A stretch of 64,000 bases of DNA from contig JAEOTM010000187.1 of the NCBI GenBank assembly GCA_016839815.1, positions 37,214 through 101,213 of the forward strand, read 5' to 3'. Of the stretch, positions 11,598 to 13,793 are shown piece after piece. Position 1 is the first letter of the stretch, and every line of letters starts with the position of its first letter. The translations under genes and the position numbers were made by a program. Under the pieces are notes generated by a model. It did not search any database. It saw nothing but the letters and a program-made list of their open reading frames with translations, and was not told where the DNA came from. The DNA is from Candidatus Hodarchaeota archaeon (lineage in GTDB: Archaea; Asgardarchaeota; Heimdallarchaeia; Hodarchaeales; Hodarchaeaceae).

Positions 11598-13793
11598 TTA
11601 ATCACTTTCGAGTAACGATAGATAATGCATCAACTTGTCTGAGGTTTCATCATCTTCAGGGACTTTTTTGGTCTCTAAATCCACTTTTCGTGGAAATTTA
11701 GTCTCTTTACTTCTGACTAGAAATTTGATGATCATTTTGATCATTCGTGCTGCAAAATCCACAGCACCTTCAGATTCTATTGGTAATTGCATGGCTTGGG
11801 ATAACAAACCACTCAATTGAGCAGAATTAACGCTCTCAATAACGTTGACTCTGCCGATTGGATAGCCACGTTGTACAAAATTAATGAGAACACCTCTCTT
11901 TTGAGATTGTTCCACGGAAAAACCGATTTTATCGGTATCAGGGAGAATGACAAATTCTCCATTAGTTTTAATTTCCAAAGGAATGATATAATCAATTGTT
12001 TCCGACAAACTATCTTTCTCAGGCGTTGCAACTACAAGAGGCTGCTCTTTGAGCTTCTTGATGGATTCAAAAATTACTCTTGCCGAAAACGCCATCGAAG
12101 AGACTCCGTCTTCGAAATAACCAACATTAGCTAAATTCATTTCGTAAGCTAGAAGATACAGAATCTCATCTTGATTAATACTCATAGGGATTTGTGAAGT
12201 CCCGATTACTCCCTTCTTTCCTGATGCACCTTGTTGCAGATACAAGCTAATCTGTACATTTGAGGATTCTTCAATTGCCTCGACTTTGAAACTGATACCT
12301 CGTGCCCCAGGTAGAGTAATTGTTCCATCCACAGTCTCTGATTGTAAGGGCATTTCCATTGGAGCAACGGTGGGTTTTTTCACTTTCTCTTTCTTTTCTA
12401 TCTCAGGTTCTAAGTACTTGCTTACAATTTCATCAATTGCTAATTTCGGCCTTTCAACTGCAAAGACCAAGCATTTTATGATCATCTCTTCATCTAATTC
12501 ATTCTTAAGATGAGCTGAGAATATATCTAGTAATCTTTGGCCTGTTAAATTCTTGAATTTCTTTTCTCCTTGGGAAGTCCGAACAAAAGGAATATACTTT
12601 AGAAAGAACTCGGTTAGGAGGGTGACTGGTATACCAGAGGAAGCTGCAATCTTGAATAATTCACCATACCCAGATTTGACAACCTCGGTTGCTTCATCAG
12701 GTTCTATTCCACAGAAATCTACCAAATAAACAATCTGATTGACCACCTCATTAGCATCAGCGGGAGTTTCTGCCTCAACTATTTCTGTAGGTGCAACTAA
12801 TCCATTTTCAGATTCGGTAATAGGAGTTGCTGGCTCTGCGTGATCGACTTGTAGCTCTTGTGTGTCTATTGGGATTGGGGAAACTTCAGTTGGTGTAATA
12901 ACTGGTTCCATAATTGGTTCTGGTTTAACAGTTGAAGTTGTCTTAACTGGTGTGGGAGTAGATGCTGCTGGAGTAGTTGATATTTTAGGTTGTACAGGTG
13001 CGCCCTCTTCCCCTGCAGACTGAGTTGCTTGTTGCATGAGTGATTGCAATTTTTGTAAGACTGCAGGATCACCTGCCATTTTCGGAGCAGTAATTTGAAT
13101 TTTTGAAGCAGTGGAGACTTTGGCCTTAGGTTTGGCTTTCCGAAGGGTCATTCCTTCCCTCTGAAATTCTTCAATTTCACCAATTGTTCTTCCATCAACA
13201 AAATCGCTCTGAGCAATTGTTGGAGTTGCAAGTTCAAATATACGCCCAAAAGCATCAATGACTGTTTCAGGGGTAAAGATAGATGTTCTAAAAAACCGAA
13301 GTGGCTCACTATATTCTAGTTGAAAGCTTTCTTTCAGTTGAGTGTGAACTGATTCATAATTAGGGGAATTTCGTACAAGATCATTCTTGTGTAAGAACAC
13401 AAAGACCTCGGCCTCAGGAGAATAGTTAATAAGTTTCTCAATGGAGGCTTTAAAATACTGAAAAGCATTATTTCGTGTCGTTTTATTTGCTGTATCAATC
13501 AAAAAGATAAATATTTTTACATTGCTAAATACAAACGGACTAAAGGCAGTAAGAAACTTTTTCAAGAATATTTTCTGTCCACCAAGATCCACAATTGTAA
13601 TAGGTGTATCTTTTATGGTCACAGACAATCTTTCATAGTTTATAGTTGCAGAAAGCTTATCAACATCTTCTGTGCGCTGTTTTAAAAAGAAAATTCTCTT
13701 TACTGCCGTTTTTCCGGCTTCCGAGAGGCCAGCTATAAGAATTTTATGCCCCATCTTCTGAGAAATCTCTGCTTCGCTGACCCACTCTGACAT
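11598..13793 (-). CDS. Rag/Gtr1-family GTPase with a long C-terminal extension (P/T-rich linker, helical domain, tandem duplicated ~85-aa domain)
   Basis: G1 GLSEAGKT, G2 SATINY, G3 DLGGQ, VFSNVKIFIFLID, Rag-type G4 HKND, G5 TSIF. Confidence 0.85.
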   Translation of the reverse strand: MSEWVSEAEISQKMGHKILIAGLSEAGKTAVKRIFFLKQRTEDVDKLSATINYERLSVTIKDTPITIVDLGGQKIFLKKFLTAFSPFVFSNVKIFIFLIDTANKTTRNNAFQYFKASIEKLINYSPEAEVFVFLHKNDLVRNSPNYESVHTQLKESFQLEYSEPLRFFRTSIFTPETVIDAFGRIFELATPTIAQSDFVDGRTIGEIEEFQREGMTLRKAKPKAKVSTASKIQITAPKMAGDPAVLQKLQSLMQQATQSAGEEGAPVQPKISTTPAASTPTPVKTTSTVKPEPIMEPVITPTEVSPIPIDTQELQVDHAEPATPITESENGLVAPTEIVEAETPADANEVVNQIVYLVDFCGIEPDEATEVVKSGYGELFKIAASSGIPVTLLTEFFLKYIPFVRTSQGEKKFKNLTGQRLLDIFSAHLKNELDEEMIIKCLVFAVERPKLAIDEIVSKYLEPEIEKKEKVKKPTVAPMEMPLQSETVDGTITLPGARGISFKVEAIEESSNVQISLYLQQGASGKKGVIGTSQIPMSINQDEILYLLAYEMNLANVGYFEDGVSSMAFSARVIFESIKKLKEQPLVVATPEKDSLSETIDYIIPLEIKTNGEFVILPDTDKIGFSVEQSQKRGVLINFVQRGYPIGRVNVIESVNSAQLSGLLSQAMQLPIESEGAVDFAARMIKMIIKFLVRSKETKFPRKVDLETKKVPEDDETSDKLMHYLSLLESD

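Follow-up and report, generated by a model that had tools for sequence, protein, structure and literature searches.

A long Rag GTPase of the Hodarchaeaceae with a GatB/GatE-type helical domain, a duplicated beta3-alpha2 domain and no detectable roadblock

Eukaryotic TORC1 signalling uses Rag GTPases as its amino-acid switch, and their roadblock-mediated heterodimer is the defining mechanical feature of the group: the roadblock dimerises the eukaryotic Rags (RagA/C, Gtr1/2) and docks them on Ragulator/EGO. What, then, is to be made of a Rag-type GTPase that seems to have no roadblock, encoded in the Hodarchaeales, a lineage that current arguments place closest to eukaryotes? The question is raised by a gene in a 64,000-nucleotide stretch of DNA (hereafter the window) from Candidatus Hodarchaeota archaeon (Hodarchaeales; Hodarchaeaceae), positions 37,214-101,213 of the forward strand of contig JAEOTM010000187.1 in assembly GCA_016839815.1. 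This open reading frame (ORF), at 11598-13793 on the minus strand, starts with ATG and encodes a protein of 731 amino acids, here called the long Rag; it lies head to head with the gene of a canonical Rag of 298 amino acids, the short Rag. An initial annotation made from the sequence had read the long Rag as a Rag G domain followed by a linker, a helical domain, a tandemly duplicated domain and a terminal helix, and that description is borne out by the alignments, profiles and structure models reported here.

We found 32 relatives of the long Rag, under the labels Hodarchaeales, Heimdallarchaeota or similar, which are 39-87% identical to it in the C-terminal part, and nearly all of which have 710-760 residues and the same Pfam pattern. 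An alignment of 27 full-length relatives revealed a common N-terminus with a mean column identity of 58%, in which W4 is nearly invariant. Because the relatives share N-terminus, length and sequence, the 731-residue ORF is, on these comparisons, a genuine conserved gene. Its product consists of a Rag G domain, a post-G segment, a disordered linker, a GatB/GatE-type helical domain, two homologous beta3-alpha2 domains and a terminal helix; two AlphaFold2 models, made for residues 345-731 and for the full length, agree on this plan, with predicted local distance difference test (pLDDT) values of 75-85 in the folded parts. Canonical Rags bear a C-terminal roadblock after the G domain, whereas the long Rag has some 540 additional residues of other domains.

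A Rag G domain and the roadblock question

The G domain (residues 1-195; 13209-13793, minus strand, as are all features of the long Rag given below) is of the Rag/Gtr1 type. The Pfam family Gtr1_RagA matches residues 17-187 with an E-value of 4.6e-30 and 105.2 bits, well over the curated threshold of 22 for membership in the Rag/Gtr family, and the Arf family matches at 6.6e-12. All five G motifs are intact, namely G1 (GLSEAGKT, residues 22-29), G2 (T50), G3 (DLGGQ, residues 69-73), G4 (HKND, residues 135-138, with the Rag-type His) and G5 (RTSI, residues 169-172), and all are invariant or nearly so in the 27 relatives, so the Rag-type reading of G1-G5 in the initial annotation was correct. 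With a mean identity of 80% among relatives, this is the best conserved part of the protein. A search of the PDB ranked RagA first (E 4.8e-20), followed by Gtr1 (6e-17), Gtr2 (8e-6) and RagC (7e-4); the domain is thus nearer to RagA/Gtr1 than to RagC/Gtr2, and it shares with eukaryotic RagA/B, yeast Gtr1 and the Asgard short Rag the Gtr1_RagA G domain, the HKxD form of G4 and the DxGGQ form of G3. The P-loop differs: it has Ser-Glu-Ala at sites that hold small residues in Rags. This triplet in G-L-S-E-A-G-K-T (residues 23-25; window 13719-13727) is nearly invariant in the long-Rag family, and the P-loop is presumably nearer to the Arf/Sar pattern GLDxAGKT than to that of Rags. The acidic residue could alter the intrinsic GTPase activity of the long Rag.

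Several lines of evidence indicate that the likeness to Rags ends with the G domain. The Gtr1_RagA match extends no further than position 174 of the 232 in the model, and a profile-profile alignment of the long-Rag and short-Rag families stops at residue 191 of the long Rag. When the roadblock of the short Rag was compared by hhalign with the post-G segment, the helical domain and either repeat, the probability was below 1% in each case (0.04% for the post-G segment). A roadblock has the element order alpha-beta-beta-alpha-beta-beta-beta-alpha, and neither model contains such a unit anywhere in residues 196-731; roadblock, longin, LAMTOR, MglB and Rag chains are also missing from the matches listed in three PDB fold searches, an absence from those lists and not an exclusion. 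An NCBIfam match to MglB in one of 27 members (E 0.029) was set aside as chance level for 27 scans. Judged from these predictions, the long Rag has no detectable counterpart of the C-terminal roadblock that follows the G domain in the Rag/Gtr family, in agreement with the initial annotation.

What does follow the G domain is a post-G segment (residues 196-257; 13023-13208) that comprises an S-D-F-V-D-G..IGEIEE motif, an MTLR stretch and a helix at 243-257 (GDPxxLxKLQxLM). S196, G205, E208 and E209 are invariant in 32 long Rags that represent all subtypes, distant ones among them. In the full-length model the helix is the only predicted structure of the segment, residues 196-241 being unstructured. 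Here there is a hint of a vestigial first roadblock helix, as BLASTP and HMMER alignments extend beyond the G domain and pair the IGEIEEF region with the helix that opens the roadblock in the short Rag and RagA, and one long full-profile alignment, which continues through the roadblock of yeast Gtr1, lays the GDPxxLxKLQxLM helix on the DPKRFEKISNIMK central roadblock helix of that protein. The second half of the roadblock fold consists of three strands plus a helix, which resemble the start and end of each repeat of the long Rag. It could therefore be proposed that residues 196-257 are a surviving first half (helix, one or more strands, helix), that the beta-beta-beta-alpha part of a repeat is the second, that the linker and GatB-type domain were inserted between them, and that a classical dimer with the short Rag is still possible. 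However, the profile of the post-G segment alone retrieves no Rag chain from the PDB at E-values up to 10, and the hhalign values given above are equally discouraging; moreover, the full-length model does not dock residues 196-241 on a repeat, each repeat is self-contained in both models, and some variants have just one repeat or carry three helical domains. We consider such a split roadblock rather improbable, and since a search with the profile of the segment itself yields no Rag chain, we treat the likeness as an unproven vestige.

The helical domain, the repeats and the terminal helix

Between the post-G segment and the folded C-terminal part lies an acidic, P/T/S/A/E-rich linker (residues 258-345; 12759-13022), in which these five residues make up 64% of the sequence and the net charge is -11. 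Among relatives it has a mean identity of 16% and a length of 62-100 residues, and it is modelled with pLDDT values around 30, below 50, as expected of a disordered stretch. The helical domain that follows (residues 346-462; 12408-12758) was noted in the initial annotation as helical and can now be identified further. It is predicted by both models to form eight helices with pLDDT values of about 80, and since the helical region of the NCBIfam GatE model NF003107 (positions ~455-572) is matched by every one of the 27 members (best E 1.3e-10), it is a GatB/GatE helical domain. The score falls far under the whole-enzyme cut-off because the helical domain alone of the whole enzyme is present. Tested over the entire domain, the predicted fold is the same as that of the GatB/GatE helical domain; the structural match is confined to GatB 292-411, no YqeY-like tail domain follows, and Pfam GatB_Yqey has no match in long-Rag members. 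The domain was thus recruited without its YqeY-like tail. It is also homologous to the N-terminal domain of GlnRS. Compared with both known settings, the copy in the long Rag is detached from amidotransferase and synthetase, has no YqeY-like tail and is acidic (family-wide median net charge -5, isoelectric point (pI) 4.9), and in some relatives it is triplicated.

Two further domains, repeat 1 (residues 491-584; 12042-12323) and repeat 2 (residues 614-696; 11706-11954), share the same predicted layout of three antiparallel strands followed by two or three helices, and each is modelled as a self-contained two-layer domain. This order, beta-beta-beta-alpha-(alpha)-alpha with three main strands, was predicted in the models of residues 345-731 and of the whole protein. 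Pairwise BLASTP between the two is not significant (E 1.8), but their family profiles align over 83 columns with a probability of 96.2% and an E-value of 2.6e-9, and a joint alignment of 54 repeat copies reveals the common pattern LP...F.V...PIG...LL...FAAR.I. Because profiles and not pairwise BLASTP detect the homology, the duplication, as judged from sequence, is real but old.

To what do the repeats belong? In residues 345-731, Pfam has no match in any of the 27 members at E-values up to 1, and a sequence search of the PDB with the C-terminal 387 residues returned nothing at E-values up to 10. Searched against 1.84 billion representative proteins, the 54-copy profile found 28 at E-values up to 0.001, the weakest being an Ig-like false positive; ten were scanned with Pfam, and nine of these ten carry an N-terminal Gtr1_RagA domain, the other being a 474-residue protein without any Pfam hit. 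On this result the repeat is known solely within long Rags, and it is a candidate for a new domain family. With their beta-beta-beta-alpha-alpha topology, a profile probability below 1% against the roadblock and no Pfam match, the repeats appear to be neither a roadblock/longin fold nor a well-known domain, either of which, according to the initial annotation, would have made the protein a conventional Rag.

Weak fold neighbours were nevertheless found. Foldseek listed the CCT-like domain of WNK (probability 0.94-0.99), eL28 and PSRP-3, so that several of the neighbours of repeat 1 are ribosomal proteins. In the ESM Atlas, a shape search gave template modelling (TM) scores of at most 0.28, with rows for the NRBP pseudokinase only as a hint, and a feature search with residues 485-731 gave no usable match. 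The CCT domains of WNK and NRBP, described as peptide-docking modules, consist of a three-stranded sheet and two helices, and structural searches with them cross-hit SMARCB1 and RPL28 (bioRxiv 10.64898/2026.04.15.718729); since the model of the long Rag hits the same set, the match list of the repeat points to the neighbourhood of the CCT fold. CCT/PF2-like domains (WNK, OSR1/SPAK, NRBP), eL28, PSRP-3 and SNF5-repeat folds resemble the repeats as predicted: two helices behind an antiparallel sheet of three strands, ~85-95 residues, a tandem arrangement and disordered linkers that set the domains off.

The kinship of these domains raises the possibility of a translation-linked sensor, in which tRNA, rRNA or ribosomes would be bound by the GatB-type domain and the eL28/PSRP-3-like repeats, so that the Rag switch could sense the state of aminoacylation or translation. 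The helical part of GatB/GatE and its tail domain contact tRNA, and the N-terminal domain of GlnRS binds tRNA; together with the ribosomal proteins among the neighbours of repeat 1, this homology is what such a proposal would build on. The charge of the long Rag does not fit it well. The acidity of the helical domain argues against a retained RNA-binding role and so weakens the tRNA-binding reading; repeat 1 is acidic as well (pI 5.1) and only repeat 2 is mildly basic. Nor does the protein contain the complete tRNA-binding body, as the YqeY-like tail that completes it is absent and the match ends at GatB 411. We therefore regard a translation-linked sensor as very improbable. Its bolder extension is a long shot: the long Rag as a nutrient or translation sensor that passes tRNA or ribosome status to the canonical Rag and the putative longin GAP neighbours, a prokaryotic forerunner of the amino-acid logic of eukaryotic Rags.

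Beyond repeat 2, an acidic variable tail (residues 697-717; 11643-11705) leads to a C-terminal amphipathic helix (residues 718-731; 11601-11642), predicted by both models to span 719-730. S718, L721, L725 and L728 are invariant in the alignment of 27 relatives, and, as had been claimed, the helix recurs in the paralog within the window (P0035); it is missing from the variants P0172, P0175 and P0180.

Family range, the short Rag and the gene neighbourhood

The long-Rag family is confined to one Hodarchaeales family. Across the phylum, 400 genomes were scanned. The window's own family accounts for 21 of them, and 17 of these contain the C-terminal module, which was absent from all 379 genomes of 32 other families. 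Copies number one to four per genome. The genome of the window has two, both within the window, the second being the paralog P0035 (61535-63676, minus strand), which has the same architecture and is 43% identical in the C-terminal part. In more distant variants, a lone repeat comes after three GatB-type helical domains (787 and 814 residues) or accompanies a single helical domain (561 residues, or about 565-576). Overall, the number of helical domains ranges from one to three and that of repeats from one to two, several relatives are without the terminal helix, and all copy-number variants retain the post-G motif; these subtypes are exemplified by proteins P0175, P0180 and P0174 and by the genome frames G071:C9, G062:C28 and G072:C314. 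At least ten strong Gtr1_RagA matches were seen in the window's own genome, four of them within 8 kb on contig C182 (19149-26502) and two others in frames of 471-488 residues, so that this genome looks to hold a large Rag-like family.

The short Rag (14110-15006, plus strand; Pfam Gtr1_RagA E 2.3e-36) is canonical: its family profile aligns at positions 3-282 of 300 with residues 2-295 of 310 of yeast Gtr1, through the roadblock, at an E-value of 6.9e-38. The long and short Rags are 32% identical over the G domain only, and their genes diverge from an intergenic region of 316 bp (13794-14109, as given by the ORF coordinates). P0035 is arranged likewise: divergent from it, a second short Rag begins and is truncated where the contig ends (63912-64000, plus strand; Gtr1_RagA positions 1-21 at 63936-63998). 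The window thus holds two head-to-head pairs of a long and a short Rag, and the gene of the long Rag, like those of canonical Rags, belongs to a Rag gene pair. Heterodimers like Gtr1/Gtr2 have been predicted for paired Asgard genes whose Rag-like G domains are fused to extra modules (Tran et al. 2024, PMC10933270).

To follow the pair across genomes, we sampled 17 related loci from species-representative genomes, of which 16 are informative for the short Rag. In 12 of these 16 the short Rag lies next to the long Rag in divergent orientation, across clades that are 39-46% identical in the C-terminal part. Does this arrangement mean that the two proteins work together? The long Rag might instead be an independent switch, its head-to-head layout the product of a tandem duplication under shared regulation and its C-terminal part autoinhibitory or localising, for example with the terminal helix folded back on a repeat. 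Consistent with this, the adjacent short Rag is missing in the other four informative loci, short Rags are widespread without long Rags, and no roadblock is at hand for pairing. However, the pairing persists between these paralogous clades and is found on both copies in the window, which exceeds the persistence expected of a neutral duplication remnant. An independent switch is accordingly unlikely in our estimate, though it deserves to be kept in view.

The wider neighbourhood is partly conserved. A protein of 352 residues without a Pfam family (15023-16081, minus strand) lies beyond the short Rag; its homolog, 41% identical across clades, follows the short Rag in 7 of 17 loci. Its gene is tandemly duplicated in CP070695.1, and its feature neighbours in the ESM Atlas are Asgard-only clusters, one of them auto-named winged helix (scores 0.87-0.89, leads only). 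On the other side, a giant ORF of 3104 residues (2264-11578, plus strand) is convergent with the long Rag gene and ends 19 bp from its stop. The same layout recurs in the three closest orthologous loci (L014-L016), where a homolog of the last ~190 residues of the giant protein is convergent with the long Rag and directly downstream of it; weaker copies of this tail occur elsewhere in L018 and L019, and BLASTP detects no similarity between the tail and the 352-residue neighbour. In 9 of 17 loci (L017:9272-15038, L018:9272-15021, L025:4-5773 and another six) a tubulin-family gene (~440 residues) and genes of 1141 and 311 residues without a known family are linked to the Rag pair. The cluster lies on the far side of the short Rag or else downstream of the long Rag, and it does not adjoin the long Rag in the window.

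A proposed working of the long Rag and its meaning

We favour a reading in which the long Rag is a Rag switch that shares a module with the short Rag and bears a tethered, putative protein-docking arm, and we put its probability at roughly 0.6. The G domain would act as the GTP/GDP switch, probably set by putative longin-type proteins encoded alongside. The long flexible linker would tether to it an arm made up of the helical domain, the two small alpha/beta domains, whose CCT/eL28-type fold resembles that of peptide-binding modules, and the terminal helix; the alpha/beta domains and the helix may bind partners. From the combination of a switch with such an arm, we infer that the long Rag would couple its nucleotide state to the recruitment of partners. 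As no roadblock-roadblock dimer seems possible, any coupling to the short Rag must run another way, either through a different interface, for which the invariant post-G segment and the terminal helix would be the best candidates, or through a shared regulator or scaffold. The suggestion of the initial annotation that the protein pairs differently or bears a putative built-in effector is thus reasonable. In a complex prediction, made without controls, of the long Rag as two chains (residues 1-257 and 346-731) together with the short Rag, the scores were 0.26 and 0.12, against a mark of 0.32, and count neither for nor against a complex.

Several points weigh against this proposal. The packing between the domains of the long Rag is not confidently predicted (predicted TM scores of 0.32-0.33). 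Pfam finds no sequence match of the repeats to the OSR1/WNK CCT family and nothing in the putative longin-type neighbours. In addition to the four informative loci in which the short Rag is not adjacent, the short-Rag family has a much wider range (labels Thor, Odin and Hermod), and hence the short Rag does not depend on the long Rag.

Asgard Rag-like genes are already known, but the described forms keep roadblock or longin domains: the multi-domain Asgard Rag-like GTPases of PMC10933270 combine a G domain with longin and/or roadblock domains, and none has a GatB-type helical domain or a beta3-alpha2 repeat. Our literature search, which did not cover all journals, found no description of the long-Rag architecture. 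What is new here is a conserved and paralogously expanded family of the Hodarchaeales in which, in one member of a Rag gene pair, the roadblock appears to have been swapped for a tethered arm. If the two Rags cooperate, an asymmetric Rag pair would be buildable without a roadblock dimer, and the pair would provide a tractable, soluble archaeal set for asking what roles Rags had before lysosomes and TOR.

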